A DNA stretch of 64,000 nt from an uncultured actinomycete (GCA_942491345.1 CALOAN010000042.1:54587-118586); one strand, 5' to 3'. Positions 1,518-62,096 are shown, counted from the first letter of the stretch. The notes: generated by a model not told the origin, from the letters alone. Numbers and translations: made by a program.

Positions 1518-2605
1518 ATGCGACTTCTCATCACCGGCGGCTCAGGGTTCATCGGATCGGCCGTCGTGCGCCAGGCCGTAGCTCGCGGCATGTCGGTGGT
1601 GAACGTCGACAAGCTCACCTACGCCGCAACTGCGGGTTCAACGAGTGCAGTCGCCGATTCCGACCGGTACGTCCTCGAAGTCGCCGACGTCGTCGACACG
1701 CAGGCGATGTCCACCATCCTCGCCCGGTTCCAACCGGATCGAGTGATCCACCTCGCCGCAGAAACGCACGTCGACCGCTCAATCGACCGGCCCCTGGAGT
1801 TCGTCGAAATCCAACGTCCTGAACGGCCCGGTGCGATTGCTGGACGCGGCTCGCGAGTACTTCGAGAGCCCTGCCAAATGATCGGCCGCGAGGAATTCCG
1901 CTTCCAGCATGTCTCGACGACGATGAGGTCTTTGGGTCGCTGGGCGATACCGGAAGCCTTTCACGAAGCCCATCCGTACGATCCACGATAGCCCGTATCT
2001 GGCATCCAAGGCCGGCCCCGACCACCTCGTGCGTGCTTGGTATCACACGCAACGGCCTGCCGATGTTGATCAGCAACTGCTGCAACAACTACGGGCCCTA
2101 CCAGTTCCCGGAGAAGCTCATCCCGCTCACCGTCATCCGGGCGCTGATGGGGTTGTCGCTCCCCGTGTACGGAGCAGGCGAGAACGTGCGGGACTGGCTC
2201 TATGTCGAAGACCACGCGGCCGCATTGCTGCAAATCGCCGAAGAGGGGGAGATCGGCTCCACCTACCTGGTCGGAGGCGACGCGGAACAACGCAACATCG
2301 ACGTGGTGATGCACATTTGCAGGATCTTCTCGACGACACTCCGCCCTGTCGCAGAGCGGCTTGATCCGCACGAGCATCTGGTCACCTTCGTCGAGGACCG
2401 GCCGGGGCATGACCAGCGGTACGCCTTCGATGCATCCGATACGTCCGAGCGGCTCGGATGGTCGCCGGCGACCTCGTTCGCGGCCGGGCTGCGCGCAACC
2501 GTCGAGTGGTACATCGCGAATGCGGCATGGTGGGAACCGCTGACGAGCAGCGGGGCCACCGTGGAGCGGGCGGGATTGTCATCTGGAGGAGGTGGCGAAC
2601 GGTGA
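1518..2605 (+). pseudogene. rfbB: dTDP-glucose 4,6-dehydratase, disrupted by multiple frameshifts
   Basis: N-terminal ORF 1518..1991 (MRLLITGGSGFIGSAVV...HLAAETHVDRSIDRPLEFVE) and C-terminal ORF 2033..2605 (NCCNNYGPYQFPEKLIP...DQRYAFD) are both RfbB-like. Middle segment 1800-2030 encodes TNVLNGPVRLLDAAREY and FQHVSTDEVFGSLGD in other frames. Confidence 0.7.
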
Positions 2606-6367: not shown

Positions 6368-8233
6368 TCAGGCACCCGCCTTCATGTTCGCGATCTGGAG
6401 GCGCGTTGACTCCAGGTACTGCTCGAACCGACGTTGAGGATCGGAACCCGGGGGAGGGGAGATCTCGGCGAGCACCGCCTCGGCGGCTTCGAAGTGACCG
6501 GTCCGAGCCAGCTCGAGCGCAAGGCCGAATCGGATCGCAACGTCGTACCGCTCATCGGTAATCGCTGCATCGAGTTGGGTGAGCACTTCGGCGCCGTCTC
6601 TTGCGACTGCGTTCGGCGGGATCAGGAGGCGCCACTCTCCGTCGTCGACGATGCGCCAGCCTGGGGGAGCGACGGAAGTCCGCGTATCTCCGGCGAGCAG
6701 AACGACGATCGGTTCTTCCCCGAGGCGGTGGCTCGAGGTGACCATCGCCCGCGGGAGGCGGATCTGGTACCACGTTGGGAGGTATCGGGGTTGGCCGTAG
6801 AACAGGGGCTGGTATCGCGGGAATTCGCGCAGGAACTCGAACAGAACGACGGTGTCCGGTTCCACGTTCTCCATGATGAGGTGCGACGCCTGTTCCCAGT
6901 CGGTCGTCTCCTGTTCGGTGACCTCGGCATGGAATCCAATCGCCGTCGGAATCGCGTAGAGAGCGAGAGCGACGGCACCGATGATCGTCGACGGGATGCG
7001 CCAGCTCTCACGGGGCGCGAGCAGCAGACGCGAACCGACAAGCCCGATCGCCAGAGCGCCGGGCAGCATCAGATCGTGGAAGTAGCGGTCGAAGAACGAG
7101 AATCCGGGTGCCACGGAAGCGAAGAAGACGGCGGAGATTCCGGGAGAAATTGCCGCGAGTGGGATGAACCACCAGACCTCGCCCCGGGTCGGGCGGAATG
7201 GCTTGAACAGCAGAAGGATGACGAGAGCGGCGAGCGCGAGGCCCGCCAGACCGAACGCGGCGTCGAACTCGGAAACGAACGCCGAAACGCTGTCGACGAA
7301 CCGCTCACGCAAGCCATACGGCGTCTGGGTCTCGAAGAACGTTGGGTTCTTGATTCGGGTGATGATCGGCATCGCCAGGGAAGCCACAAACGTGATTCCC
7401 GCGACGGACAGTGCGCTGGTCCCGCCGGGATCGTTCTCACGAACCACGTAGCGGCGCACCAGGAGTCCGGCCACGGCGAACAGGGAAACCATCACTGGGA
7501 CCAGCGCCTGGGTCAGGACGAGGAGCAATCCCGAGAGTCCTGAGAATGTGAGGGTCTTCGCGTTCGGTCCGGTCCGGAGCAGAGAACGGACCGCTACGAC
7601 GAAGAGCAGCGCGAAGAAGGTCGGAATTGCGTACGGCCGGATGAACGCCGTTGTGCGCAGCACAATGGGGGAGAACCCGTACGCGAGGATCGTGATCGCG
7701 GGAGCAAAACGGTTTCCCGCGAACTGCTTGGATAGGTACCCAAGGAAGCCCACCGATCACAGGCCGAAGAGCGTCGGCAGGAGGCGTTCGGCAAAGTCGG
7801 TTGCGCCGAACGCAAGCCTCCATGTTCCACCGAGCGCGACCTCGAGCGGCGGCTGGTTGAGCGCCCACGAGGTGCTGAGCCATTGCCCGGGACCTCCCCA
7901 GTATCCGCCGAGTTGACGCAGCTCGTCGATGTGAAACGGTTCCTCAGTTGCGAAGACGATCCACGTCACCGCAACGAGCACAAACGCCAGAGCGGTCAGC
8001 CATCGCGCGTCGCCCGTGTGCAACCACGAACGGTTTGTGTCTGATGGTGAGGTTGTTGTCGTCAGGATCGTTCCAAGGTCGGCGTGCGGAGCATATCCGC
8101 AACACCAGAGAAGTCGATTGCACGAGCGAAGCAGCATGCGCCGGGCCGGATGGGGCACCCCTCCGGCGTTCGGGGGCCGGCGCGGACGGGTCCGGACGGT
8201 GGAACGGCAGTGAAAATCCGCCGGACGATGCAT
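6368..8233 (-). pseudogene. polytopic membrane glycosyltransferase (PMT/ArnT-like, GT39/GT83-type) interrupted by a single in-frame TGA at 7757-7759
   Basis: ORFs 7757..8233 and 6368..7753 are in the same frame, separated by TGA plus one codon (..TLFGL*SVGFLGYLS..); multi-TM N-terminal region with a soluble C-terminal domain. Confidence 0.4.
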
Positions 8234-14706: not shown

Positions 14707-15753
14707 CTAGGAAACGAAGGCACGCCAGCGGTCGGCTGCGCTCGCGTCGGCACGGACGATCCAACGCTCGGCCCGCTCCACGGCCTCGCCGGCATGATCG
14801 ATGAGGCGGCGCGTCGCATTCGCGATCTCCGACGGGTCGTCCGGGATCTCGACCGTCGTGAGGCCCCACAACCTGCCGTCACTTCGGAACACGTCGGACG
14901 TGCGGGAAATCAACGCCGGCACACCCGTCTGGTACGACTCGATCGGCGAAAGCGGGTGGCACTCCGACAACGTGACGTAGAGATTGATGTCCATCGACGC
15001 CTGGAGAGAGACGAAATCGCCCCACGGGATCTCGCCGTGGTCGACGAGGTGCAGGTGATCCAGGTATTCGACGTCCGGTCGTCGCATCACATGCGCCGTT
15101 GCATCGTCGATCAGTGCAACAGCGCCGAGTTGGGTTACGACGTTCTTTCGCCAGAACGGTTCGGCGAAGATCCCGACGTTGAGGCCCGGTCCAACGTCGC
15201 GTGCCTCGTACGACGGGAGATCCGGCGCCCGGTTTGGCACATACGATGCCGGGTATCCGAGAGCGGTGAACGACTCGGCGAGACCTGCCTTCACGAACCC
15301 CACGCGATCTAGAAGCCCGCCGCCGGCAAGCGCAAGAACTTCGTTTGCGACGGCGGCCTCACCGGCTTCGGCGCCGTGCTGGGTCATCGACGAATGGAGC
15401 ACCACGCGGGTGCCTATGCCGGCTCCGTGAGCCGCACGGATGAACGAGCCCGAGCCGGGGGGGAATCCATGGACGACGACGGTTGCAGTGTTGCTGTCGC
15501 GCAGCCCGGCGATGATCTCGTCTTTCCATCGGTCGAGATCGTCGCACTCGATTGTGGGCTCGCGAAAGGTGTACGCCGCGGTTCGCACGCCCCGCCAGTC
15601 GGGGTGGCACACGACGACCACCGCCGGATCGCCCGGATTGAGACCGTCCCACGACCCAAACGACAGAACCGGAGGGCGGTCGTCGGCCGGAGCTTCGGCT
15701 GGTGCATCGGTTGGTGCTGTCGCGGCGAATCGCCGCCTGAGGATCTCACGCAT
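14707..15753 (-). CDS. putative GT-B glycosyltransferase (group 1-like)
   Basis: C-terminal ESYQTGVPALISRTS resembles the GT4 E-x7-E region; otherwise weak. Confidence 0.4.
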   Translation of the reverse strand: MREILRRRFAATAPTDAPAEAPADDRPPVLSFGSWDGLNPGDPAVVVVCHPDWRGVRTAAYTFREPTIECDDLDRWKDEIIAGLRDSNTATVVVHGFPPGSGSFIRAAHGAGIGTRVVLHSSMTQHGAEAGEAAVANEVLALAGGGLLDRVGFVKAGLAESFTALGYPASYVPNRAPDLPSYEARDVGPGLNVGIFAEPFWRKNVVTQLGAVALIDDATAHVMRRPDVEYLDHLHLVDHGEIPWGDFVSLQASMDINLYVTLSECHPLSPIESYQTGVPALISRTSDVFRSDGRLWGLTTVEIPDDPSEIANATRRLIDHAGEAVERAERWIVRADASAADRWRAFVS

Positions 15754-16884: not shown

Positions 16885-18126
16885 ATGCTACGGGTTCTCG
16901 CAAAGACGGCGCAGATGATCGTGCTCTCGATCGCCGGGTACAACGCGGTTGTTGCGCTGTGGGGATGGAGAAACCGCCCCGCCGCCGCGCCGGGTTCCGG
17001 CTGGCGGCGGCTGCGGATCGTCGTGCCGGCCCATGATGAGGAGGCCGTGATCTCCGGGATCCTTGGAGACCTCGCATCGGACACATATCCGGCAGCTGAG
17101 GTCGTGGTTCTTGCGGATCGCTGCACCGATCAGACGGCGGAGGTCGCCGCCGGCAGGGGAGTGACAGCGGTGGAGCGTTTGAGCGGACCGGGAGGAAAAG
17201 GGGCAGCGCTCTCGTGGTACCTCGATGCCTATCCCCTCGACGATGATGAGGCGCTGGTGGTATTCGATGCCGACAATCGGCTGCCACCTCGAGCTTTGAC
17301 GAGGATCGCCGACGAACTCGACGCCGGCCATGAAATCGTTCAGTGCTATCTCGACGTCGAGAACCCGGATGGATCCGTGCTCGCCACCGCTTCGGCGATG
17401 TCGTATTGGGCCGGGAACCGGATGGTGCAGTTGGCACGCGACAATCTTGGCTGGTCGAGCGACCTCGGTGGCACCGGGATGGCGTTCACCGCAGAGGCGC
17501 TGGATCGGATCGGCGGATTCGGGACCTCACTCACGGAGGACCAGGAGATCGGAGTGCGGGCAGCGCTGGCCGACCTCCGCGTGGCCTGGCTCCACGATGT
17601 GAGGATCCGCGATGAGAAGCCGACCGGCCTGACGACCACCGTCCGACAGCGATCCCGATGGATGTCCGGAAAACGCGAGGTGGCGAAGTTGTACCTGCGA
17701 CCCTTGTGGTCGGCGGCGGTCGAGCGCCGGTCCTTCCGCCTGTTCGACCAGGGGCTCAGGCTCGTCCAACCGGGACGCTCGTTCGTGGCGCTCCTGTCCG
17801 GTCTGTTGGCAGTCGCTGCCGTAGCGACCCGAAGCCGCCTCCTGCTCTCACCGTGGATCTGGGTCACAGCAGCGGTCGGGCAGTTCGCGCAGCCGATCCC
17901 CTTCCTGCTCCGCGACGGTGTCTCGCCCCGCTACGTGGTGCGATACCCGTTCCTTGCCGTCCTCGCCGCCCTCTGGATCCCCATCCGCCTGGTGAGCAGC
18001 CGAATCAACGGTGACTGGTTCCACACCCCGCATGGAGAAGCAACAAACCCCCAGTCTTCGCCTCCCCCACGGAGTGGGGAGGCGCGAGCACCGGCCGCTA
18101 GGCCGGAGCGGAGCGGAGGGGGCTGA
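16885..18126 (+). CDS. processive GT2 synthase-type glycosyltransferase (PgaC/cellulose-synthase-like); last ~22 codons derive from the adjacent repeat array
   Basis: DxD region (VVFDADNRL), QxxRW motif (RQRSRWMSG) and multiple TM segments; ORF runs into the repeat beginning ~18060. Confidence 0.6.
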   Translation: MLRVLAKTAQMIVLSIAGYNAVVALWGWRNRPAAAPGSGWRRLRIVVPAHDEEAVISGILGDLASDTYPAAEVVVLADRCTDQTAEVAAGRGVTAVERLSGPGGKGAALSWYLDAYPLDDDEALVVFDADNRLPPRALTRIADELDAGHEIVQCYLDVENPDGSVLATASAMSYWAGNRMVQLARDNLGWSSDLGGTGMAFTAEALDRIGGFGTSLTEDQEIGVRAALADLRVAWLHDVRIRDEKPTGLTTTVRQRSRWMSGKREVAKLYLRPLWSAAVERRSFRLFDQGLRLVQPGRSFVALLSGLLAVAAVATRSRLLLSPWIWVTAAVGQFAQPIPFLLRDGVSPRYVVRYPFLAVLAALWIPIRLVSSRINGDWFHTPHGEATNPQSSPPPRSGEARAPAARPERSGGG

Positions 18127-19885: not shown

Positions 19886-21142
19886 ATGGAGCCCTCCCCG
19901 TCCCAACCGAGCGCTGCCACACGTCTGAAGATATCCGGCACCGCCGCCATGATCCTCGGGACGATGGTGAGCGCCTTCTCGGTCTACGTCTACCAAGTGA
20001 TCGCCGGACGGATGCTGGGAACCGACGAATTCGCCCCCATCGGGGTGATGTGGACGGTGATGTTCCTTGTCTTCACCGTGCTGCTGCTGCCGGTCGAGCA
20101 GTACGTCACCCGTCATTTGACGATCACTGGCGGACGAACCGCCGGAGACCGCACGGGAATCATGCTCGTGGGCGGAACAATTGCCCTCGGGATCGTCCTG
20201 GGCGTCGGATTCGTCATTGTGACCCGCGATCGGTTCTTCGACGGGGCCGCCGTCTACGGCGTGGTGATGTTCATCAACCTCGCAGGACGGAGCATGCTCG
20301 CAATCGCTCGCGGGTACCTCGCCGGCCGGCGGAGGTTCCATGCGTACGGCGCAGCGATCGCGATCGAGGGGGTTGCGCTCGTCATTCTCTCCCTGTTCGT
20401 GGCCGCGGTCAGCCCGACAACGCTGGCGTTTGCCATCGCGATGAGCCTCGGGCCGCTTTCGGTACTGCTGGTCCGCCCGTTCTCGGGTGGCTATCGCGGC
20501 GAGCCGTTGCAGGACGCTTCGGCGCAGGGCATCGGGTTCCTCGGTCCGCTGATCATCGCCACCGGCGCCTCGCAACTCGTGCTGTCCGTCGGCCCGATCG
20601 TCGTGGGGTTCGTGGGTGGAACGGCGGCCGCGATCAGTGTCTTCTTCATCACCTTCACGCTGTTCCGGGGCCCGGTCACCTCGTCGTACAACATCGTGGC
20701 CCGGGTGCTGCCCGACTTCACCTCGTTGGCAGCTCGCGGTGAACAGCACCGGTTGAGCGCGTGGGCCGGGAAGCTCGGATTGATCGGTGTCGCCACCATG
20801 ATCGTGTTCGGCGTCTCCGGGTGGATTCTCGGTCCCACGGTCGTCGACTTCCTCTACGGCGGCGAGTTCCGGCCATCGCCCCAGCTTGCCGCACTCGGTG
20901 CCGCAGGTGTGGGCGCAGCGTTGATCGCCCTGTTCCTCAACCAGATCTACATCGCTCGCGGTGAGACCGGCCGCATGGCCCTTGTTTGGGTTTCGAGCCT
21001 TCTGGTGGCCGGGGCGGTGCTTGCCGTGACCACAACCGAGCCGGTGATCAGGGTTGGGACGGCATTCCTGGCGGGTGAAGCGACGGCCATGGTCTTGCTC
21101 GGCGGCGTTGGAACCCTCGCGCATTGGCGGGATCGAGCGTGA
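19886..21142 (+). CDS. polysaccharide/oligosaccharide flippase (Wzx/MOP-superfamily-like), ~12-14 TM
   Basis: Highly hydrophobic 419-aa protein with the periodicity of MOP flippases, located in a glycan locus next to a Wzy-like gene. Confidence 0.55.
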   Translation: MEPSPSQPSAATRLKISGTAAMILGTMVSAFSVYVYQVIAGRMLGTDEFAPIGVMWTVMFLVFTVLLLPVEQYVTRHLTITGGRTAGDRTGIMLVGGTIALGIVLGVGFVIVTRDRFFDGAAVYGVVMFINLAGRSMLAIARGYLAGRRRFHAYGAAIAIEGVALVILSLFVAAVSPTTLAFAIAMSLGPLSVLLVRPFSGGYRGEPLQDASAQGIGFLGPLIIATGASQLVLSVGPIVVGFVGGTAAAISVFFITFTLFRGPVTSSYNIVARVLPDFTSLAARGEQHRLSAWAGKLGLIGVATMIVFGVSGWILGPTVVDFLYGGEFRPSPQLAALGAAGVGAALIALFLNQIYIARGETGRMALVWVSSLLVAGAVLAVTTTEPVIRVGTAFLAGEATAMVLLGGVGTLAHWRDRA

Positions 21143-24221: not shown

Positions 24222-25775
24222 ATGGCGGCGCGCCAACTGCTGCTCCTCCCGGCGATGATTGTCGGGTTCGTCGTGGCTCTTGGGGTTGCACCGGCACTTG
24301 CCGGAGAGGTCACGGCCGAAGAGCAGCAGTTCATCTACGACCTCAACGAAGCCAGGCGCGACCCGGCTGCCTATGCCGCAACCCACCTCTCGGGCTCACT
24401 GCGGGATCTCATCGCGAGCTACCAGGCTCGCCCGCCGGTCGCCGTCGGCGACGTCATCAGTGATGCTGCTCAGCTTCGGACCGACGACATGGTGGCGTAT
24501 AGCTACTTCGCCCACTACAACCCAATCACCGGATTCGGCCCACCGCAAGCACTGGCGCAGGTGGACTACGACTGGACGAGTTGGGGTGAGAACATCGGCC
24601 GCGGCTATCAGACCCCGTCCTCGATGCTGATCGGCTTTCTCAGCTCGAACTCCGGGCATCGCGAATCGGTCATGGGTCAGGGATCGATCCCACAGACCTT
24701 CCGCGAGATCGGAGTCGGACATCACGCAACCAGCAACACGTGGACCGTCATCCTGGCCCGGCCGGGGAACACGGAACCGGCTCTCACGGGTGTGGTCTAC
24801 GACGACAAGAACAACAACAACCGGATGGACCTGGGTGAGGGCGCAGGCGGTGTCTCGGTGAGTGCCGGCTCTGCAACGGTTCAGACCAACCAGGGCGGAG
24901 GATGGTCGATACCCATAGGTCCGGGAACATGGGAAGTCACCGCATCGGGTGGGGGCCTCCCGAGCACCCTGCGAACCTCAGCAGTGATGGCCTCGACCAA
25001 CGTGTGGATCGAATTCGAGTCCGAGCCGCTCCCGGACCCGCGGCCCGCACCCTGCGCCGGAGCTACCTGTGATTCGGTCGGGCTGGTTGATGATGGAAGC
25101 CAGTGGCATCTGTGGGCCAGCCCGGAAGTAGGCGACGGCATGGACGCGTTCTTCTTCGGCAATCCCGGCGACGTTCCGTTCATGGGGGACTGGAACGGTG
25201 ACGGAGTCGCAACGCCTGGTCTCTATCGGCAATCGGACGGCTACGTCTACCTGAGGAACACCAACTCCCAGGGCAACGCCGACATCAAGTTCTACTTTGG
25301 GAACCCCGGCGACGTGCCGATCGTCGGTGACTTCAACGGCAACGGCCGAGACACGGTGTCGATCTACCGTCCGTCGAACCAGACGTTCTACATCATCAAC
25401 CAATTGGGGTCCAATGATGACGGCCTCGGCGCTGCCGACTACTCCTACCTGTTCGGGAATCCGGGTGACCTGCCGTTCGTCGGTGACTTCGACGGCAACG
25501 GAATTGACAGTGTCGGCCTGTATCGCCAGTCCACCGGTTTCGTCTACTTCCGGAACTCGCTGACGACGGGGATCGCAGAACTCGAGTTCTACTACGGCAA
25601 CCCGGGTGATGTGATTCTCGCAGGCGACTGGGATGGAGACGGGGACGACACGGTCGCGGTCTATCGACCGTCCGACGGCCGGGTGTACATAAACCTGTCG
25701 AATGCGCCAACAGTGGCCGACTACTACGTCTATGTTGGGACCTACCCCAACGCCGTCGCCTGGCAACGAAGCTAG
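24222..25775 (+). CDS. secreted CAP/SCP/PR1-like domain protein fused to a C-terminal FG-GAP-like repeat domain
   Basis: Signal peptide; GENIGRGYQ...SNSGHRESVM CAP motifs; same C-terminal repeats and CxxxCDSVGLVD linker. Confidence 0.6.
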   Translation: MAARQLLLLPAMIVGFVVALGVAPALAGEVTAEEQQFIYDLNEARRDPAAYAATHLSGSLRDLIASYQARPPVAVGDVISDAAQLRTDDMVAYSYFAHYNPITGFGPPQALAQVDYDWTSWGENIGRGYQTPSSMLIGFLSSNSGHRESVMGQGSIPQTFREIGVGHHATSNTWTVILARPGNTEPALTGVVYDDKNNNNRMDLGEGAGGVSVSAGSATVQTNQGGGWSIPIGPGTWEVTASGGGLPSTLRTSAVMASTNVWIEFESEPLPDPRPAPCAGATCDSVGLVDDGSQWHLWASPEVGDGMDAFFFGNPGDVPFMGDWNGDGVATPGLYRQSDGYVYLRNTNSQGNADIKFYFGNPGDVPIVGDFNGNGRDTVSIYRPSNQTFYIINQLGSNDDGLGAADYSYLFGNPGDLPFVGDFDGNGIDSVGLYRQSTGFVYFRNSLTTGIAELEFYYGNPGDVILAGDWDGDGDDTVAVYRPSDGRVYINLSNAPTVADYYVYVGTYPNAVAWQRS

Positions 25776-54626: not shown

Positions 54627-55394
54627 TCATCGGCGACGCCCCCGCCATCCCCGCACCACATACCGCCAGAACGATGATGTTTCTGTGACCGGCACAGGTG
54701 GTGTTTGACCCTCTCCGTCTGCGGCGGTTCCGGAGTCCGGAATGGGTTCGGATGATGCTTGGCCGCCTCCGTCAGCCGATGCGGCGGTTTCGGGGCTCGC
54801 GGCGGGGGCGATTGGTGTGTGACCCCCTCCGCCGTCGTGGCTCGCAGCTGGTGGTTGGTAGCTCGACGCTTCTCTCAGCTCCGCCAGCCGTTCGCGCAGG
54901 AACAGGGCCTCCGTCTCCGCCTTCGCGGCCCGTTCTCTCGCTTCGGCGAGTTGCTGCCCGGCTTCGTGCAGGTTGCCGAGCTGATTGAGCATCTTGTTCC
55001 AAGCATCGACTGGGACAATCATCGTCGCCGGCTCCGGCGGCCGAGCAGGCGTCTCCTGTCTCGTGTCTCGTGTGTCGTGTCTCGTGTCTCGATGCTCTCG
55101 ACTCGCGTCGGGCTCGCGGCGACTGGTATCTCTCTTCGCCCTCACCGACCCCATCTCCACCATCCGCAGTGTCAGCTCTCCGTCCGATTCGAGGTAGGTG
55201 TCCACCGTGTCGCGGCGGCACCATTTCCTCAGAGTGCCAATCGGGATACCCGTGAGTTCGGAGGCTTCGCGTAGCGTGCGCCATTCACCGCTGCGCGGTG
55301 CGGAGTCGCGGTCCTGGGAGACGGCGGGTCGGCCTCGTTTGCGATCGCGTGATTCACGCATCGCTTCGGTCTCCCATCGTTTCGCTGCATCCAT
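54627..55394 (-). CDS. MerR-like HTH DNA-binding protein with a low-complexity DTRH-heptad linker and a C-terminal coiled coil; start uncertain
   Basis: WRTLREASELTGIPIGTLRKWCRR HTH; REHRDTRHDTRDTRQET encoded by (GTCTCGT)n; LAEARERAAKAETEALFLRERLAELRE coiled coil. Confidence 0.45.
   Translation of the reverse strand: MDAAKRWETEAMRESRDRKRGRPAVSQDRDSAPRSGEWRTLREASELTGIPIGTLRKWCRRDTVDTYLESDGELTLRMVEMGSVRAKRDTSRREPDASREHRDTRHDTRDTRQETPARPPEPATMIVPVDAWNKMLNQLGNLHEAGQQLAEARERAAKAETEALFLRERLAELREASSYQPPAASHDGGGGHTPIAPAASPETAASADGGGQASSEPIPDSGTAADGEGQTPPVPVTETSSFWRYVVRGWRGRRR
55046..55092. repeat. (GTCTCGT)n heptanucleotide microsatellite (about 6 units) inside the MerR-like coding region
   Basis: ctgtctcgtgtctcgtgtgtcgtgtctcgtgtctcg read directly; same heptamer as at 48.25 kb. 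Confidence 0.85.
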
Positions 55395-55452
55395 GAGGTT
55401 CGAGGCTAGCGGCCGGCGGTTCGGCGGGATCGGGATCCGGCAGGCTCCTAGG

Positions 55453-56079
55453 ATGGTGGTCACACGACTCAGGATTGAGCATATGCCGGAAGAGCCGCCG
55501 CAACTCGCAGACGAAGTACGAGGACTCGTGCGGAGCATCGTTACCGGCGTGCTCGACGACGCCGGGCGTATCCCGCCACTGCCGGAGCGTGAAGCGCCGA
55601 CACCTGGGGCAGGCGGTTTCGAGACAATCGCTGTCGGCGCCGACCACGGCGGATTCCCGTTGAAGGAGCGAATCGCGTTTCGGCTCAAGGAGACCGGGCA
55701 CGACGTGCACGACTGCGGCACCGATTCCACGGACGCCGTCGACTATCCCGACTACGCCCATGAGGTGGCGCGCCTCGTTGCGGACGGCACGTGCGGGTCG
55801 GGCATTATCGTTGATGGCGCGGGCATTGGCTCCGCGATGGTCGCGAACAAGGTCCCTGGAGTGAGGGCTGCGCTGTGCTATGACCTCTCGAGCGCTCGCA
55901 ATAGCCGCGAACACAACCACGCCAATGTGCTCACGCTCGGCGCCGGCCTCATCGGACCAAACCTCGCTCTGCAGATCGTCGAGGAATGGCTTGCGACGCC
56001 GTGGGGCGAAGGTCGTCACGCCGATCGAGTTGCCAAGATCACAGCCATCGAACACCGATACGCCGGGGGGTCTCCGTGA
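55453..56079 (+). CDS. rpiB: ribose-5-phosphate isomerase B with an N-terminal amphipathic extension (putative BMC encapsulation peptide)
   Basis: [19 protein letters not shown]...[19 protein letters not shown] RpiB/LacAB core; N-terminal [16 protein letters not shown] helix. Confidence 0.75.
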
Positions 56080-56924
56080 CCAGCGACATCCTCGACCGGG
56101 AGATCCTGGTTGAACTCATAACCAAAGAAGTGCTGACCGCCCTTTCGGAGCGCTCTGACATCTGCAAGAACCCCGAGGCGGTTCGCCAGGTTGTCGCGAA
56201 CGGCGCCGACCGTGTTGCATTCCACGGAACTGCGGCGGACGTACCGATCGACGTTGCGAAGTACATCGACCACACGCTCCTGAAACCGGAAGCAACGGCC
56301 GACGAGATCGACGTTTTGTGTGACGAAGCAATGGAGTTCGGGTTCGCCTCGGTCTGCGTCAATCCAACGTGGGTCAAGCGGGCGGCGGACCGCCTCCGCG
56401 GTTCCGAGGTCGTGACGTGTTCGGTGATCGGGTTCCCACTCGGTGCATCGACGCCCGAGATCAAAGCTATGGAAGCCCGGCGGGCCCTCCGGGACGGCGC
56501 GCGTGAGGTCGACATGGTCCTCAATGTCGGGGCGCTCAAGTCGGGTGATCTCGAACTCGTCCGCACGGATATCGAGAAGGTGGTTGACTCGGCGCACGAA
56601 GCCGGAGCGATCGTCAAGGTGATCCTCGAGACGTCGAAGCTCACCGACGAAGAGAAGGTGATCGCTTCTGCGCTGGCGAAGCAGGCGAAGGCCGACTACG
56701 TGAAGACCTCGACCGGCTTCGGCGGCGGGGGGGCGACCGTCTATGACGTCGCCCTGATGCGAGAGACGGTTGGGCCGGAGATGGGCATCAAGGCTTCCGG
56801 AGGAGTCCACACTGCCCAAGAGGCGGAAGACATGATTGCGGCCGGGGCGACCAGAATCGGGGCGTCGGCCGGTGTACAGATTGTTGCGGGATCGGAAGGA
56901 GACGCCGGTGGCAAAGGGTATTGA
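56076..56924 (+). CDS. deoC: deoxyribose-phosphate aldolase with an N-terminal amphipathic extension (putative encapsulation peptide)
   Basis: [11 protein letters not shown]...FASVCVNP...[13 protein letters not shown]...[10 protein letters not shown] DeoC motifs; N-terminal [16 protein letters not shown] helix; GTGA overlap with rpiB. Confidence 0.8.
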
Positions 56925-57534
56925 GGTCCGGTCGTACACCTTCCTGGACTCACTACAACCGCAATACGCCGCATTTCTCGGCACCGTGGCGCAGGGGTTC
57001 CTCCCGCTCGCGGGTGACGCGTCCCTCTTCGTGGAGGTGGCTCCCGGCATCGAGATCAACCGACTCACCGACGTCGCGCTGAAGGCGACCACCGTCAGAC
57101 CGGGGATGCAGATCATCGAGCGCTACTACGGCCTGCTCGAGGTCCACTCGCCGGATCAGGCTGAGACGAGGGCGGCAGGGGCGGCGATTCTCGAGTCGGT
57201 GGATCATGTCGAGACCGACCGACTCAAGCCGAAGATCCTGTCATCGCAGATCATTCGTCGGATCGACGACCATCACGCGCAGCTGATCAATCGAACCCGG
57301 CATGGGCAGTTGATCATCCCCGGCCAGACTCTCTACGTCCTCGAGTGTGAACCGGCCGCGTATGCCTCGCTGGCGGCGAACGAGGCTGAGAAGGCCGCCG
57401 AGATCAACGTCCTCGAGGTTCGCTCGCACGGCTCCATGGGCCGCATCTACCTCGGTGGCGAGGAACGGGACATCGATGTCGGCTGGAGAGCCGCCGTTGC
57501 CGCCCTCGAGGGCCTTGACGGGCGGGTTGTGTGA
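56908..57534 (+). CDS. tandem BMC-domain shell protein (BMC-T, probably permuted)
   Basis: Two BMC-like halves (EVRSYTFLD...; [34 protein letters not shown]); AGGAGA RBS then GTG. Confidence 0.55.
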
Positions 57535-57663
57535 CGGTGAGCAGCAAGTAGTCAGCAGCAAGTAGCGGGTAGCGAACAGGGCTGAGGAGTGCGGAAACCA
57601 CCGCTCACCCGGCCGTCGGCAGTTGCCTAGAGTCAGAAACTAACCACAGAGGGAGACAACCAG

Positions 57664-57966
57664 ATGGCTGAAGCGCTTGGGATGATTGAATGCCGGAGTT
57701 TTGCGGCGATGGTGGAATCGGCCGATGCAATGGTGAAGGCGGCCAAGGTAGAACTCGTTTCGTACGAGGAGACCGGTGGCGGCTACGTGACCGCCATCGT
57801 TCGTGGTGACGTCGCTGCAGTGAAGGCCGCAGTCGATGCCGGCATACGCGGCGCAGAGAAGGTCGGCGAGGTCATCTCGACCCACGTGATCGCCCGTCCC
57901 CATCTCAACATCGACCTGGTGCTCCCGCTCGGACGAGCGGATCAGGCGGCAGAAGAACTCGGTTGA
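57664..57966 (+). CDS. BMC-H hexameric shell protein (PduA/EutM/CcmK-like)
   Basis: EALGMIECRSFAAMVESADAMVKAAKVELVSYEETGGGYVTAIVRGDVAAVKAAVDAG canonical BMC domain. Confidence 0.85.
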   Translation: MAEALGMIECRSFAAMVESADAMVKAAKVELVSYEETGGGYVTAIVRGDVAAVKAAVDAGIRGAEKVGEVISTHVIARPHLNIDLVLPLGRADQAAEELG

Positions 57967-58001
57967 GCCCGACTGCTTCGTACCCCCAGGAGGTGGAATA
58001 G

Positions 58002-58289
58002 ATGCAGCTCGGGAGGGTCACCGGCACACTTGTGTCGAGTCGCAAAGAGCCCCTCATGGAGGGGATGACGTTCCTCGTGGTCCGACAGATCAACGCCGAC
58101 AACACCGACACCGACTCGTACGTTGTTGCCGTCGATGCCGTGGGAGCCGGGGTCGGCGAGGTCGTCATGTACGCCTCCGGCAGCTCTGCACGGCAGACTG
58201 AAGGCACGAAAGACAAACCCTGCGACGCCGTGATCATGGCGATCGTCGACACGTGGGAGATCGACGGCGAGACGGTGTTCGTGAAGTGA
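58002..58289 (+). CDS. BMC-P pentameric vertex protein (EutN/CcmL/PduN-like)
   Basis: [13 protein letters not shown]...[21 protein letters not shown] EutN/CcmL fold signature. Confidence 0.8.
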
Positions 58290-58296
58290 GCCACCG

Positions 58297-59754
58297 GTGC
58301 TGAACGAGCAGGAGATCTCCGAGATCATCGGTCGCGTCCGGGGTCGCGTGGAGGCCGTCGAAGGGCGCAGCCGGACCGGCCCCGCGTTACGCGCTGCCGC
58401 CGAGAGCGCGGCGTTGTCTTCGAAGCTCGGCGACGGCATCTACGCGAACATCGATGAGGCGATATCTGCTGCACGCCGGGCATTCTTCGCGTATCGCGAC
58501 ATGGGACTCGAGAAGCGCAGAGTGATCGTGGATGCGATGCGTTCGGCGATGCTCGCGGACGGGGAGAGGCTTGCCTATCTCGCCCGCGAAGAGACCGGCC
58601 TCGGGCGAGCGGAGGACAAGATCCTCAAGAACCGGCTCGTCACGATCCGCACGCCCGGCCCTGAGGATCTCGAGCCGCAGGCGGTGACCGGGGACTCCGG
58701 GATGATGGTCACCGAGTTCGCCCCATACGGCGTAATCGGCTCGATCTCACCCACAACGAATCCAACCTCGACAGTGATCAACAATTCGATCGCCATCATT
58801 TCGGCCGGGAATGCGGTCACGTTCAACGTGCACCCGAGCGCCAAGGATGTCTCGGTCGAGAACATCCAGGTTCTCAACCGGGCGATCATGTCGGCGGGTG
58901 GGCCTCCGGATCTCATCACGGCGATCGCTGAGCCGACGCTCGAATCGGCGAAGCGGCTGATGGCCCATCCCGACGTACCCGTGCTGCTCGTCACCGGAGG
59001 GCCGGGGGTCGTCAGGGAGGCGTTGGCGATGCCGAAGAAGGCCATCACGGCAGGTCCCGGGAATCCGCCGGCGGTGGTTGATCAGACGGCTGATATCAAC
59101 CAAGCGGGCCGCGACATCGTCCGCGGCGCTTCATTCGACAACAACATCGTATGTGTTGATGAGAAGACGACGATCGTCGTCGACAGTGTCGCGGACCGGC
59201 TCGTGCAGTCCATGACTTCGCACGGCGCCTATCGACTCAAAGAGCATGAGCTGAAACGACTGGAACGCGTGATCTTCAGAGAGATGGGCCCACAAGGGAA
59301 ACCCGGGATCATCAACCCAGCGTGGATCGGAAAGGACGCAGGAGCGATCCTCGCCGAGATCGGCGTGTCGGTCGACACCGACCTCCGCCTGCTCGTCGCC
59401 GAAGTGCCGGCAGGGCACAACCTCGTCTGGACCGAGCAGATGATGCCCGTGATGCCGGTGGTGCGAGTCAAGGATGTCGATTCCGCGATCGATCTCGCGG
59501 TGCGGTCCGAACACGGCTTTCGGCACTCCGCGTCGATCCACTCCACCAACGTCGACACGATCACCCACATGGCACGCGAGATGAACTGCTCGATCTTCAT
59601 CGCCAACGGGCCGAACATTTCGGGCCTTGGAGACGGCGGTGAAGGCTTCAGCTCATTCTCGATCGCGAGTCCGACCGGAGAAGGCCTCACCCGACCTCGA
59701 ACGTTCTCACGTATCCGGCGTGTAACCGTGGTGGGGGCGATGCGCATTGTCTGA
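58297..59754 (+). CDS. CoA-acylating aldehyde dehydrogenase (PduP/EutE-like) with an N-terminal encapsulation-peptide-like helix
   Basis: Aldehyde dehydrogenase core with catalytic Cys region (DNNIVCVDEKT) and N-terminal ISEIIGRVRGRVEAV amphipathic helix; GTG start. Confidence 0.8.
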   Translation: MLNEQEISEIIGRVRGRVEAVEGRSRTGPALRAAAESAALSSKLGDGIYANIDEAISAARRAFFAYRDMGLEKRRVIVDAMRSAMLADGERLAYLAREETGLGRAEDKILKNRLVTIRTPGPEDLEPQAVTGDSGMMVTEFAPYGVIGSISPTTNPTSTVINNSIAIISAGNAVTFNVHPSAKDVSVENIQVLNRAIMSAGGPPDLITAIAEPTLESAKRLMAHPDVPVLLVTGGPGVVREALAMPKKAITAGPGNPPAVVDQTADINQAGRDIVRGASFDNNIVCVDEKTTIVVDSVADRLVQSMTSHGAYRLKEHELKRLERVIFREMGPQGKPGIINPAWIGKDAGAILAEIGVSVDTDLRLLVAEVPAGHNLVWTEQMMPVMPVVRVKDVDSAIDLAVRSEHGFRHSASIHSTNVDTITHMAREMNCSIFIANGPNISGLGDGGEGFSSFSIASPTGEGLTRPRTFSRIRRVTVVGAMRIV

Positions 59755-60352
59755 TCCCGCAATCGCCATTGTCGAATTCGACTCGATCGCATCCGGGATC
59801 TACACCGGCGATGCGATGGTGAAGTCCTCACCGATCGGCTCGATCTACGCCGGTACCGTCCACCCCGGGCGGTACCTCGTTCTGGTATCTGGGGATACGG
59901 CGAGCGTTGAAGTGGCCCTGGAGACCGGCCGGGAAGCAGGTGCGCGATCCGTTATCGACTCGATCTTCCTGCCGGCGGTTCACGATGATGTGGTTGCGGC
60001 AATCGTGTCGCTGGTCGATGCCGCAGACTTCGAAGGCGACGCAGCAGGGATCGTCGAAACCGCCACGGTGGCCAGCGTGGTCGAGGCTGCGGACGCCGGC
60101 GTCAAGGCTGCGGCGGTATCGCTCCCTGCCGTTCGTCTCGCGGACGGACTCGGCGGTAAGGGATACGCCGTCTTCACCGGTCCGATTGCCGAAGTGGAAG
60201 CTGCGCTCGAGGCTGCCGTTGAACGAGCCACACCGACCGGCCAGCTCATTCGTCATGTCATCATCGCGCAGATTCACTCCGAGATGCGGGAGAACCTCGC
60301 TGCCGATCTGCGATTCAATCAGCGACTGGCACAGCACGCGGAGGACCGCTGA
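59747..60352 (+). CDS. BMC-T tandem-domain shell protein (PduT-like)
   Basis: Two BMC domains (AIAIVEFDSIASGIYTGDAMVKSS...; AAGIVETATVASVVEAADAGVKAAAVSL); TTG start overlapping the aldDH stop. Confidence 0.7.
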   Translation: MSDPAIAIVEFDSIASGIYTGDAMVKSSPIGSIYAGTVHPGRYLVLVSGDTASVEVALETGREAGARSVIDSIFLPAVHDDVVAAIVSLVDAADFEGDAAGIVETATVASVVEAADAGVKAAAVSLPAVRLADGLGGKGYAVFTGPIAEVEAALEAAVERATPTGQLIRHVIIAQIHSEMRENLAADLRFNQRLAQHAEDR

Positions 60353-60618
60353 TGCAACTCGGTCGCGTCACGGGGACCGTCGTTGCTTCGGTGAAGACCG
60401 AGGGCCTCGAGGGGGTCAAGTTCCTTGTCGTCCAACCGCTCGATAAACACCAGGAGCCGATCGGCAAGCCCTTGATTGCAGCGGACGCGGTGTACATGGC
60501 GGGTCCAGGGGAATTGGTCTACTTCGTGGCCTCACGTGAGGCTGCCGAGGCACTCGAGCCGAGGTTCGTGCCCGTTGACCACGCCATCGTCGGCATCGTT
60601 GACCAGGTTTCGTTGTGA
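60352..60618 (+). CDS. BMC-P vertex protein, second paralog
   Basis: [29 protein letters not shown]...AADAVYMAGPGELVYFVASREA. Confidence 0.8.
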   Translation: MQLGRVTGTVVASVKTEGLEGVKFLVVQPLDKHQEPIGKPLIAADAVYMAGPGELVYFVASREAAEALEPRFVPVDHAIVGIVDQVSL

Positions 60619-60881
60619 AGATCGGTCTCGTCTCCGGCAACGTCGTTTCGACGATCAACCACCCGTTCTTCGACGGGCATCGCCTCATGATCTGCGACCT
60701 GATCAACCCCGACGGCGAACCGGACGGCTACACGATCGCCGTTGATACGGTCGACGCCGGTGTCGGTGACACAGTCCTCATCATCGACGAGGGCAACTCG
60801 GCGCGCCAGATCTTCGGCCTTACGACCGGCCCGGTTCGCGCCGTCATCACCGGGATCATCGACTCGATCGATCAGGTGTGA
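60615..60881 (+). CDS. BMC-P vertex protein, third paralog
   Basis: MKIGLVSGNVVSTINHPFFDGHRLMICDL...AVDTVDAGVGDTVLIIDEGNSAR. Confidence 0.75.
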   Translation: MKIGLVSGNVVSTINHPFFDGHRLMICDLINPDGEPDGYTIAVDTVDAGVGDTVLIIDEGNSARQIFGLTTGPVRAVITGIIDSIDQV

Positions 60882-61289: not shown

Positions 61290-62045
61290 CCCTCCCCTCC
61301 ACCACCGAAGGTGGGGGAGGGTGCCCGAGCGGAGCGAGGGCGGGAGGGGGCGGCCTGGGAGCTTGGATCGCGCAGATGAGGTCAGCGCCCGGGTGCCCGA
61401 GCGGAGCGAGGGGGGGAGGGGGCGGTTTGGGAGCTTGGATCGCGCAGATGAGGTCTTGCGCCCGGGTGCCCGAGCGGAGCGAGGGCGGGAGGGGGCGGTT
61501 TGGTTCTCCGTCTCCACCACGCAGTGGGGGAGACGCGACCGGACGGAAGTCCGGTCGCAGAGGGGGCGGCCTGGGAGACCGGACCCCGCCGATTTGGCCC
61601 CCCCCCGGGGTGCCCGAGCGGAGCGAGGGCGGGAGGGGGCGGCCTGGGTCTCCGTCTCCACCACGCAGTGGGGGAGACGGAGACCGGACGGAAGTCCGGT
61701 CGCAGAGGGGGCGGCCTGGGAGCCAGAATCGCGCAGATGAGGTCTTGCGCCGGGTGCCCGAGCGGAGCGAGGGCGGTAGGGGGCGGCCTGGGAGCTTGGA
61801 TCGCGCAGATGAGGTCTGGCGCCGGGGTGCCCGAGCGGAGGAGGGGGGAGGGGGCGGTTTGGTTCTCCGTCTCCACCACCGAAGGTGGGGAGACGCGACC
61901 GGACGGAAGTCCGGTCGCAGAGGGGGCGGCCTGGGAGCTTGGATCGCGCAGATGAGGTCTTGCGCCGGGGTGCCCGAGCGGAGCGAGGGGGGAGGGGGCG
62001 GCCTGGGAGCTTGGATCGCGCAGATGAGGCCTTGTGCCCGGGTGC
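61290..62045. repeat. large composite repeat array (~63-bp direct repeats interleaved with ~75-bp double-hairpin modules); same families as the 18.06-18.86 kb array
   Basis: gtgcccgagcggagcgagggcgggagggggcggcctgggagcttggatcgcgcagatgaggtc recurs at least 8 times; gtctccaccacgcagtgggggagacgcgaccggacggaagtccggtcgcag modules are inserted 3 times. Confidence 0.85.
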
Positions 62046-62096
62046 CCGAGCGTACGCAGCGAGGCGCACGGTCGAGCGATCCGCGAGACTGTGCGC

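Follow-up and report, generated by a model that had tools for sequence, protein, structure and literature searches.

The SPU3 subtype of the sugar-phosphate-utilisation (SPU) bacterial microcompartments (BMCs) was catalogued in 2021 (Sutter et al., PMC8217296), and SPU biochemistry was described in 2024 (Dwyer, Sutter & Kerfeld, PMC11585597). In the definition of the subtype, an aldehyde dehydrogenase (AldDH), an aldolase of deoxyribose-5-phosphate (DERA) and an RpiB-like protein (RPI) are the only enzymes, PTAC is absent, and the shell genes comprise a single BMC-H, a BMC-P triplet of which two members are neighbours, a CcmP-like BMC-Tdp and a PduT-like BMC-Ts without the pore cysteine (PMC8217296, PMC11585597). 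For typing, the catalogue relies on colour clades of the shell proteins. SPU2 shares the three enzymes, a CcmP-like Tdp and a Ts, and its hosts are mainly Bacteroidetes, Spirochaetes and candidate phyla. Biochemical data come from a single SPU type, SPU6 of Chloroflexi. The HO BMC of Haliangium ochraceum also has a BMC-P triplet, a BMC-H, a Ts and a Tdp.

Here, a 64-kb stretch of DNA (64,000 nucleotides; hereafter the window) from an uncultured actinomycete was analysed. Based on its match to the published descriptions of the subtype, we identify the locus that it carries, with good confidence, as an SPU3-subtype SPU BMC operon of uncultured Acidimicrobiia, with a proposed chemistry leading from deoxyribose-5-phosphate to acetyl-CoA. 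The locus shares with SPU3 the order RPI then DERA, N-terminal extensions resembling encapsulation peptides (EPs) on all three enzymes, a single BMC-H with KAAK/RPH interface motifs, three BMC-P of which two stand side by side, a Tdp resembling CcmP, a Ts with neither pore Cys nor PduS partner, the lack of PTAC, and the replacement of RPI Cys66 by Asp. Actinobacteria are among the host phyla listed for SPU3, and no difference of substance was found. RPI and DERA are fused in 12-20 of the catalogued SPU3 loci and are separate genes here, and the SPU3 papers do not mention the lineage-specific divergent HTH and coiled-coil gene that accompanies the present operon (PMC8217296, PMC11585597).

The other described systems differ in several features. 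In SPU2 an additional green-clade BMC-P brings these proteins to four, two BMC-H are often present, and 80% of the Ts proteins keep the pore Cys, unlike the present locus. In SPU6 the AldDH EP is C-terminal and the enzyme lies on another AldDH branch, whereas the EP-like helix is N-terminal here; moreover, the SPU6 Tdp belongs to the 'blue' clade and is not CcmP-like, and a EutQ-like protein and a GntR/UTRA regulator are present. The main HO locus lacks DERA and RPI and has more than one Tdp, again unlike the present locus.

Gene content and layout of the locus

Nine intact genes, most of them overlapping, lie on the plus strand at 55483-60881, with a divergent gene upstream:

54627-55394, minus strand: HTH and coiled-coil protein, candidate regulator, 255 aa; divergent, unannotated family
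55483-56079, plus strand: RpiB-like protein (the SPU 'RPI'), 198 aa; PF02502, TIGR01120
56076-56924, plus strand: DERA (DeoC, deoxyribose-5-phosphate aldolase), 282 aa, signature enzyme; PF01791, TIGR00126 equivalog
56908-57534, plus strand: BMC-Tdp shell protein, CcmP-like, tandem permuted BMC domains, candidate gated pore; PDB 4HT5, NCBIfam CcmP
57664-57966, plus strand: BMC-H hexamer shell protein, 100 aa; PF00936
58002-58289, plus strand: BMC-P pentamer (vertex) protein 1, 95 aa; PF03319
58297-59754, plus strand: CoA-acylating aldehyde dehydrogenase (AldDH), 485 aa; PF00171, NF011927
59747-60352, plus strand: BMC-Ts shell protein, PduT-like, tandem BMC domains; two PF00936 domains
60352-60618, plus strand: BMC-P pentamer protein 2, 88 aa; PF03319
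60615-60881, plus strand: BMC-P pentamer protein 3, 88 aa, overlapping protein 2; PF03319

The order rpiB-deoC-BMC-T-BMC-H-BMC-P-aldDH-BMC-T-BMC-P-BMC-P is the one proposed in the initial annotation, and the families were confirmed by profile matches for all genes but BMC-Tdp, which was placed by its homology to CcmP. The locus had been placed correctly, but the start of rpiB given there, 55453, had to be corrected: the ATG at 55483 is the likelier start because AGGA lies 8 nt upstream of it and most homologues are 198 aa long. The translational coupling suggested earlier is seen for most of the genes. The stop and start codons of rpiB and deoC overlap as GTGA, as do those of BMC-P2 and BMC-P3, and overlaps of 17 nt, 8 nt and 1 nt are found for deoC/BMC-Tdp, AldDH/BMC-Ts and BMC-Ts/BMC-P2, respectively. 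The 129 nt between Tdp and BMC-H form the sole sizeable gap in the operon, and the RNA structure predicted in this spacer was not significant (z-score -0.76). Rfam gave no match in the window, and the promoter and terminator scan returned no more hits than in shuffled sequence, so that neither element could be recognised. A 72-bp array downstream was considered as a CRISPR array and rejected, because its 'spacers' are themselves repeated.

A Pfam scan of the window covered its 58 called genes together with the HTH gene and an additional ORF. PduL, Pta, AckA, ADH and PduS were not found in the 64 kb (no PF06130, PF01515, PF00465 or PduS-type match), so that the lack of PduL and ADH first noted near the locus extends to the whole window. 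AldDH, DERA and RPI are the only enzymes of the locus and no PTAC accompanies them, as in SPU3. Neither a nucleoside phosphorylase nor a phosphopentomutase, the suppliers of deoxyribose-5-phosphate, was detected in the window.

The three enzymes

DeoC matches the TIGR00126 equivalog at 273 bits (cut-off 117), and alignment to solved DERAs places the catalytic residues at D146, K181 and K210. The DERA fold begins at residue 58 (PDB 8QPS, E=2e-82) and is preceded by an N-terminal extension of ~57 aa, of which a helix and a 16-residue segment are conserved across about 70 loci. This extension appears to fit the amphipathic helix and two strands that have been described for SPU DERAs and are lacking in non-BMC DERA (PMC11585597). 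The AldDH matches NF011927 at 612 bits (cut-off 403) and the BMC AldDH 5JFL at E=6e-122, and its Cys286 falls at the position where 5JFN has the catalytic, modified Cys. Its EP-like helix is N-terminal, not C-terminal: the first ~20 residues (MLNEQEISEIIGRVRGRVEA) are conserved, with the motif ExEIxxIIxRVxGRV kept in related loci, and the fold starts at about residue 43. The RpiB-like protein (PF02502, 176 bits; TIGR01120 above its cut-off) begins with an EP-like helix, where the hydrophobic moment of the protein peaks, followed by a Pro-rich linker; in related loci the helix is conserved and the linker hypervariable. Encapsulation-peptide-like helices are hence found at the N-terminus of all three enzymes and are kept across about 70 loci. 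As these helices are amphipathic and of the EP type, the enzymes are probably packaged.

The RpiB-like protein has Asp111 at the position of E. coli Cys66 in PDB alignments and Ala113 in place of the catalytic Thr68; in our own reading of the motif, Ser117 falls at the position of M. tuberculosis Glu75. Neither the Cys66/Thr68 pair nor the Glu75 alternative of a functional ribose-5-phosphate isomerase B is therefore present. The motif [VI]DGAG[IV]GS was found in 69/69 SPU RPI copies, so that the Asp is universal there; the other rpiB copy of these genomes retains CGSG, and in close relatives a canonical Cys-type rpiB lies ~4.8 kb downstream. Asp in place of the catalytic Cys has been reported in all SPU RPIs, and neither this change nor the encapsulation peptide of RPI could be kept as a novelty, both being already published (PMC11585597). 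The gene called 'rpiB' encodes the Cys-to-Asp SPU variant, which is probably no ribose-5-phosphate isomerase. Instead of serving as the housekeeping enzyme, its product would most likely bind DERA as a partner or isomerise another substrate.

In a rival reading, the compartment handles a sugar phosphate besides or instead of deoxyribose-5-phosphate, and the Asp-variant RPI would genuinely isomerise a new substrate, ahead of or after the aldolase step, in a core pathway of three enzymes. We consider this reading quite unlikely. The Asp could serve as catalytic base, like the Glu of M. tuberculosis RpiB, but the SPU6 RPI, the sole SPU RPI assayed, has negligible ribose-5-phosphate isomerase activity, and a linking enzyme such as transketolase is missing (PMC11585597). 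A protein with its own EP-like helix, under strong purifying selection (dN/dS 0.06-0.13) and with D54/H55, H144 and R178/H179/R182 retained for phosphate binding and ring opening, would suit an isomerase; a structural or partner role is suited equally well by the natural DERA-RPI fusions and by the DERA-RPI complex, which was published together with active DERA for the SPU6 enzymes in vitro (PMC11585597). Also in favour of an isomerase, the Asp clade is large, as 92 of the best 150 cluster representatives carry Asp at this position. Against a different substrate, the aldolase scores far above the DeoC equivalog cut-off with all catalytic residues kept.

Shell proteins

The BMC-H matches PF00936 at 101 bits, and BMC-P1, P2 and P3 match PF03319 at 101.7, 88 and 78 bits; at least one BMC-H (PF00936) is thus clustered with at least one BMC-P (PF03319), the combination by which a BMC locus is recognised. 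Inspection of the BMC-H sequence shows the interface motifs KAAK (residues 25-28) and ARPH (77-80), which were compared with published motifs. No second BMC-H or other shell gene was detected in the 64-kb window by tblastn, and the three BMC-P genes against one BMC-H counted in the initial annotation were recovered as such. BMC-P1 shows 38-40% identity to P2 and P3; the latter two are adjacent and overlapping, and P1 stands apart.

The two BMC-T genes reported earlier are both present, with the refinement that they belong to different classes, Tdp (56908-57534) and Ts (59747-60352). The Tdp scores below the Pfam BMC cut-off (19.7 bits). It matches CcmP (PDB 4HT5) at E=2.5e-84 and 5LSR also at ~1e-84, with CsoS1D behind at 4e-52, and the HO BMC-T structures 5V74 and 5V76 at E about 1e-68 to 1e-71. 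Its NCBIfam CcmP score of 333.5 bits lies just under the cut-off of 340, and a gene identical to it has the precomputed Pfam family CsoS1D_N. By these matches the protein is a clear CcmP homologue, assignable to the CcmP-like major clade; a 210-aa CcmP-like Tdp is found in one catalogued actinobacterial SPU3 locus. The Ts has two PF00936 domains and matches PduT (3N79, E=7e-32). It lacks the pore cysteine, with His39 (HPGR) where PduT-type proteins carry the CPGK Fe-S motif, and the window holds no PduS homologue, again as in SPU3.

With DeoC, an RpiB-type protein and an acylating AldDH beside the shell genes, the SPU-like character first proposed for the locus is upheld. The BMC-H, the BMC-P proteins and the second BMC-T pass Pfam, the first BMC-T is recognised as a CcmP homologue, and the N-terminal extensions looked for on the signature enzymes are present on both deoC and rpiB; since the shell profiles match and these enzymes are extended, neither of the findings that the initial annotation had named as speaking against its reading was obtained.

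A carboxysome-like or HO/FRAG-type compartment of other function, with DERA and RPI as mere neighbours, is very unlikely. The closeness of the Tdp to beta-carboxysomal CcmP would agree with it, but RuBisCO, carbonic anhydrase and CcmM/CcmN, which a beta-carboxysome calls for, are all missing among the genes of the window. BMC-P triplets, Tdp and Ts occur in HO and FRAG5 loci as well; FRAG5, however, carries the EP of its AldDH at the C-terminus and possesses a pair each of BMC-H and Tdp, unlike the present locus. Moreover, the idea of mere neighbours is at odds with DERA and RPI that overlap shell genes translationally, carry EP-like extensions and are invariantly linked to the shell genes in 80 loci.

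Distribution, regulation and proposed role

The nine-gene order was identical in all 80 related loci retrieved, as far as each contig spans. These loci come mostly from Acidimicrobiia MAGs and represent species-level genomes, with AldDH sequences 73-98% identical; the exact RpiB and HTH proteins are likewise annotated from Acidimicrobiia MAGs. Strong purifying selection acts on each of the nine genes (dN/dS 0.02-0.22 at dS about 1). Because of the invariant order in 80 loci and these dN/dS values, the operon is not a product of chance; the nine genes form a real operon, and its protein-shelled organelle probably degrades deoxyribose phosphate from DNA. Clustering of the flanking ORFs of the 80 related loci revealed no recurrent PduL, Pta, AckA, Fe-ADH, PduS or shell gene; the sole recurrent neighbours are the HTH gene and EamA-type transporters. 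It is hardly credible that the locus has decayed or fallen silent and no longer builds its organelle: the incomplete metabolosome core (no PTAC, ADH or PduS) and the loss of the catalytic Cys of RPI, which together with the lack of a recognisable promoter or terminator might suggest it, are SPU3-wide and SPU-wide traits, respectively, and the nine ORFs are intact, coupled, under purifying selection and in identical order in the 80 species-level genomes wherever the contig spans.

The same order in 80 loci, mostly from Acidimicrobiia, means that the organelle is not rare in this actinobacterial class. The initial annotation had called it uncommon for an actinobacterial-type genome, a view that does not hold, as the operon is widespread in Acidimicrobiia and SPU3 had already been recorded in Actinobacteria. 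Indeed, the SPU3 catalogue comprises 31 loci, and the Acidimicrobiia clade found here is much larger. Nor can novelty be attached to a set of three BMC-P genes and a single BMC-H, or to the absence of PTAC and ADH, since these features define the published subtype SPU3. Matching SPU3 point for point and being common in Acidimicrobiia, the locus is an ordinary one.

For the divergent upstream gene, which precedes rpiB in most related loci, no Pfam or NCBIfam match was obtained at threshold. An intergenic region of 88 bp (55395-55482) separates it from rpiB. The initial annotation had described a divergent MerR-like regulator. A divergent HTH gene is indeed present, but its resemblance to MerR, BldC and Xis is at the fold level only, with the MerR HTH profile PF00376 below threshold (14.2 bits, E=0.039; cut-off 28.2). 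Among 1499 homologues none has a Pfam domain and nearly all of the named ones are 'hypothetical'; their alignment contains four conserved modules. In the AF2 model, residues 39-94 form a winged HTH and residues 130-179 a long helix, and its nearest folds are Pukovnik Xis, BldC and MerR-type proteins (TM 0.64-0.71, target-normalised; E about 0.05). From its conserved position, the HTH and coiled-coil protein is the probable regulator of the operon. An McdB-like positioning role, suggested by disordered stretches, the coiled coil and a Trp at the C-terminus, was rejected because the winged-HTH fold is clear and no ParA/McdA partner is encoded among the operon-adjacent genes.

In the mechanism that we propose, BMC-H would tile the facets of the shell and the three BMC-P paralogues would cap its vertices, with the PduT-like Ts, devoid of the Fe-S cysteine, and the CcmP-like gated Tdp as putative minor components. 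From the family assignments and the SPU6 DERA work, we infer that deoxyribose-5-phosphate from DNA or nucleoside breakdown would enter the shell and be split by DERA to G3P and acetaldehyde, and that the acylating AldDH would convert this volatile and toxic aldehyde, with CoA and NAD+, to acetyl-CoA and NADH. The splitting of deoxyribose-5-phosphate and the trapping of acetaldehyde, as already put forward in the initial annotation, correspond to the published SPU model (PMC8217296, PMC11585597). With PTAC, ADH and PduS all lacking from the operon, acetyl-CoA, presumably together with NADH, must exit, or CoA and NAD+ must enter; a published hypothesis proposes that this cofactor traffic passes the large gated Tdp pore. 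It is possible but unlikely that all parts of a more far-reaching reading hold jointly, namely an Acidimicrobiia SPU3 compartment without any dedicated cofactor-recycling enzyme, an Asp-variant RPI that is a catalytically distinct sugar-phosphate isomerase (e.g. of the triose phosphate or another product) and no inert partner, and a BldC/Xis-like HTH protein that founds a new family of BMC-specific regulators.

The role of the Asp-variant RPI, the recycling of NAD+ and CoA without PTAC, ADH or PduS, and the reason for three BMC-P proteins are questions already posed SPU-wide in the 2024 literature, and the present locus opens none beyond them. It adds one uncultured Acidimicrobiia example of the most widespread and least studied metabolosome type. 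Many Acidimicrobiia keep the SPU3 operon as a stable trait with vertical conservation, and its conservation in this class fits a lifestyle of scavenging DNA and detritus.

Gene content of the operon and its match to SPU3

Nine genes on the forward strand at 55483-60881 were identified by listing ORFs and by calling genes with a self-trained codon-usage model. Families were assigned with Pfam and NCBIfam profiles (AldDH, acylating aldehyde dehydrogenase; BMC-H, BMC-T and BMC-P, shell protein classes; Tdp and Ts, two BMC-T classes).

Genes of the operon, in order (all + strand)
RpiB/LacAB-family protein (PF02502, 176 bits; TIGR01120, 153.9 bits, cut-off 138.65)
Deoxyribose-phosphate aldolase, DeoC (TIGR00126, 273 bits, cut-off 117)
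208-aa protein, Tdp (BMC domain weakly matched, 19.7 bits)
BMC-H, 100 aa
First BMC-P, between BMC-H and AldDH
EutE/PduP-type aldehyde dehydrogenase (NF011927, 612 bits, cut-off 403)
Two-domain BMC protein, Ts, PduT-like
Two more BMC-P, last in the operon

Adjacent genes overlap or sit almost end to end (GTGA, 17 nt, 8 nt, 1 nt, GTGA), apart from a 129-nt spacer before BMC-H. For rpiB, 55483 is the likelier start, given an AGGA 8 nt before it and a length of 198 aa in most homologues. The gene calls, profile matches and tight junctions confirm the nine-gene microcompartment locus proposed in the initial annotation.

The Pfam BMC model is a poor detector of the BMC-Tdp class. Against the PDB, the 208-aa protein matched the beta-carboxysome shell protein CcmP (4HT5, E=2.5e-84), followed by the HO-shell BMC-T proteins and CsoS1D; judged by these matches, it is an unambiguous CcmP homologue and so a tandem-permuted BMC-Tdp. 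The two-domain protein matched PduT (3N79, E=7e-32) and carries HPGR at the site of the CPGK found in Fe-S-binding BMC-Ts proteins. BMC-H carries KAAK and ARPH, which were compared with the published motifs. No further BMC-H, BMC-T or BMC-P was found in the window by tblastn.

More than 280 sugar-phosphate-utilisation (SPU) loci from 26 phyla have been catalogued in seven subtypes (Sutter et al. 2021, PMC8217296). In that catalogue, SPU3 loci have AldDH, pfam01791 and pfam02502 as their only enzymes, N-terminal encapsulation peptides (EPs) on AldDH and pfam01791, a CcmP-like Tdp, and a BMC-Ts with neither a PduS partner nor a pore cysteine; Actinobacteria are among the host phyla. Every item of this description was checked and found in the locus, a genuine, intact microcompartment operon that is most probably of the SPU3 type. 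In the nearest alternative, SPU2, there are four BMC-P and the pore cysteine is usually present, whereas our locus has three BMC-P and lacks the cysteine. The published tree includes an actinobacterial SPU3 locus, RBG_16_68_12, whose Tdp (210 aa) is CcmP-like.

The SPU-type reading of the initial annotation was correct, but it overrated how unusual the locus is. The three points it had singled out (three BMC-P to a single BMC-H, and the lack of PduL and of an alcohol dehydrogenase) are the definition of SPU3. Both enzymes are indeed missing from the locus, and a Pfam scan of the 58 called genes, together with the HTH gene and an additional ORF, extended this to the whole window, where no phosphotransacylase (PTAC; PF06130), Pta, acetate kinase, Fe-ADH, PduS, RuBisCO or nucleoside-catabolic gene was found.

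Enzymes, N-terminal extensions and proposed pathway

The catalytic Asp and two Lys are kept in the aldolase (DERA; D146, K181, K210), as is Cys286 in AldDH. In PDB alignments, Asp111 and Ala113 of the RpiB-like protein (RPI) align with catalytic Cys66 and Thr68 of E. coli RpiB. The motif [VI]DGAG[IV]GS is common to SPU RpiB copies (69/69), and CGSG is kept in the second rpiB of the same genomes. The Asp variant occurs in 92/150 best cluster representatives from a 1.8-billion-protein library, with a median of 67 residues ahead of the DHGG motif. The Cys-to-Asp change and the RPI EP were considered as possible novelties and set aside as already reported: Dwyer, Sutter and Kerfeld (2024, PMC11585597) described the substitution in all SPU RPIs, an RPI EP, negligible R5P isomerase activity of the SPU6 RPI, a DERA extension of one helix and two strands, and a DERA-RPI complex.

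The closest relative, L004, encodes a second, canonical rpiB of 149 aa at 17335-17784 (-), with a Cys-type CGSGAGA motif and 40-45% identity; it follows the Nudix and polyphosphate-kinase genes, some 4.8 kb downstream from the final BMC-P. It lies at an equivalent position in the related loci L005, L011 and others; the corresponding position here falls just past 64000, outside the window.

In-frame translation of upstream sequence from about 70 loci revealed conserved N-terminal helices on all three enzymes: [ED]xEVRxLVxRIVxGVLD in RpiB, followed by a hypervariable Pro/Ala linker; RExLxExITxEVLxAL in DeoC, followed by a conserved 16-residue segment; and ExEIxxIIxRVxGRV in AldDH. Within RpiB, the hydrophobic moment is highest in its N-terminal helix. 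DeoC is 225 aa in a public call (NCBI contig L001, 211-888) versus 282 aa here, a 57-aa N-terminal extension being missing, and RpiB calls vary (198, 208 or 228 aa). These lengths fit the published warning that automated annotation truncates SPU enzyme extensions and EPs (PMC11585597).

Homology establishes the set of shell proteins and the enzyme families that keep intact active sites. Following the published model, deoxyribose-5-phosphate would enter the shell, DERA would split it into G3P and acetaldehyde, AldDH would make acetyl-CoA and NADH, and products and cofactors would be exchanged via the predicted gated Tdp pore; the RPI-like protein may be a DERA partner, or an isomerase with another substrate. 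Acetyl-CoA export through BMC-Tdp has been suggested for PTAC-less SPU types (PMC11585597).

Genomic surroundings

Features around the operon
1-36 kb (1-36500): polysaccharide and cell-envelope cluster
36-53 kb: cell-wall enzymes, amidase, 2-oxoacid:ferredoxin oxidoreductase, Ni-SOD and its peptidase, MurJ, two ABC exporters
54627-55394, -: divergent 255-aa HTH and coiled-coil protein of an unannotated family
60903/60921-61289, +: small gene with a lipoprotein-type signal (LSACGG), 22-40 nt past the last BMC-P
61319-62052: tandem array of a GC-rich 72-bp unit, about 10 copies (64% matches; 215-bp higher-order period)

The first cluster includes glycosyltransferases, DegT aminotransferases, a UDP-GlcNAc 2-epimerase, proteins resembling Wzy and MurJ, and a number of large secreted proteins (an S8 peptidase, a beta-helix protein and a GH26-like protein). 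Several of its long ORFs, among them 6368-7753, 14707-15753, 19949-21142 and 24222-25775, have no Pfam match. The adjacent ORFs 1518-1991 and 2033-2605 (+) match one NAD-dependent sugar 4,6-dehydratase/epimerase, the former its N-terminal and the latter its C-terminal half (PF16363 positions 1-150 and 171-331); either the gene is frameshifted or split, or the assembly is in error.

Immediately upstream of the operon lie the divergent 255-aa gene and an EamA transporter, as originally annotated. Downstream are the lipoprotein-like gene, the tandem array, an alpha/beta hydrolase and a Nudix-histidine-phosphatase fusion. The lipoprotein-type gene has no family match and is kept after the operon in about 35/80 best loci; it may be co-transcribed, and no tie to the compartment was seen. 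The array takes up the whole intergenic space from the lipoprotein-like gene to the hydrolase gene, and its unit contains short palindromes, e.g. GCGACCGGACGGAAGTCCGGTCGC. L004 has just one unit at this site (gap about 230 bp), and none was found in other related loci. CRISPR was rejected because the inter-repeat segments are themselves repeated. No Rfam family was detected in the window, the spacer between Tdp and BMC-H showed no significant RNA structure, and no promoter or terminator match was informative.

Distribution and the neighbouring HTH family

Three short public contigs carry the exact AldDH, NCBI MAG GCA_049666265.1 among them, and the exact RpiB and HTH proteins carry the label Acidimicrobiia bacterium. 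Scanning one genome per GTDB species, we found AldDH relatives in at least 569 stretches. In the best 80, identity is 73-98%, and nearly all of these stretches belong to Acidimicrobiia/Actinomycetota MAGs. The order RpiB-DeoC-Tdp-H-P-AldDH-Ts-P-P is identical in 80/80 of these, as far as each contig extends, and all nine genes have dN/dS of 0.02-0.22 in pairwise comparison with three relatives (dS about 1). Thus the SPU3 operon is a conserved, selected trait of Acidimicrobiia and no rarity.

Some loci with this gene order (L014, L020, L026-L031, L039, L056, L080; AldDH 75-80% identical) are labelled Acidobacteriota, Kiloniellales or Gemmatimonadales, reflecting either mis-binned or mislabelled MAG contigs or whole-operon horizontal transfer. 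In L004 (10001-12300; 98% AldDH identity), AldDH and BMC-Ts each align by tblastn in two pieces, which suggests frameshifts in that assembly.

The divergent 255-aa protein had no family match at threshold (MerR HTH model, E=0.039), and none of its 1499 homologues carries a Pfam domain, nearly all named ones being 'hypothetical'. Alignment resolved four modules separated by low-complexity linkers: an N-terminal WETEA motif, the HTH, a nearly invariant helix (about 45 residues) and, at the C-terminus, TTSxWRYxxxGWRxRKR. AlphaFold predicts a winged HTH (pLDDT >90) together with a single long helix. Among solved structures, those closest in fold are mycobacteriophage Xis, Streptomyces BldC and MerR-type regulators (target-normalised TM 0.64-0.71, though E is about 0.05). 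The 'MerR-like' label is therefore acceptable only for the fold. The gene is present in most of the best 80 loci; it is missing from an Ilumatobacter-like subclade (L035, L047, L060, L068, L079, L082). From its position, we infer a candidate regulatory role. The remaining interest of the locus lies in questions raised before for SPU loci in general, and in this unannotated HTH family beside the operon in Acidimicrobiia.
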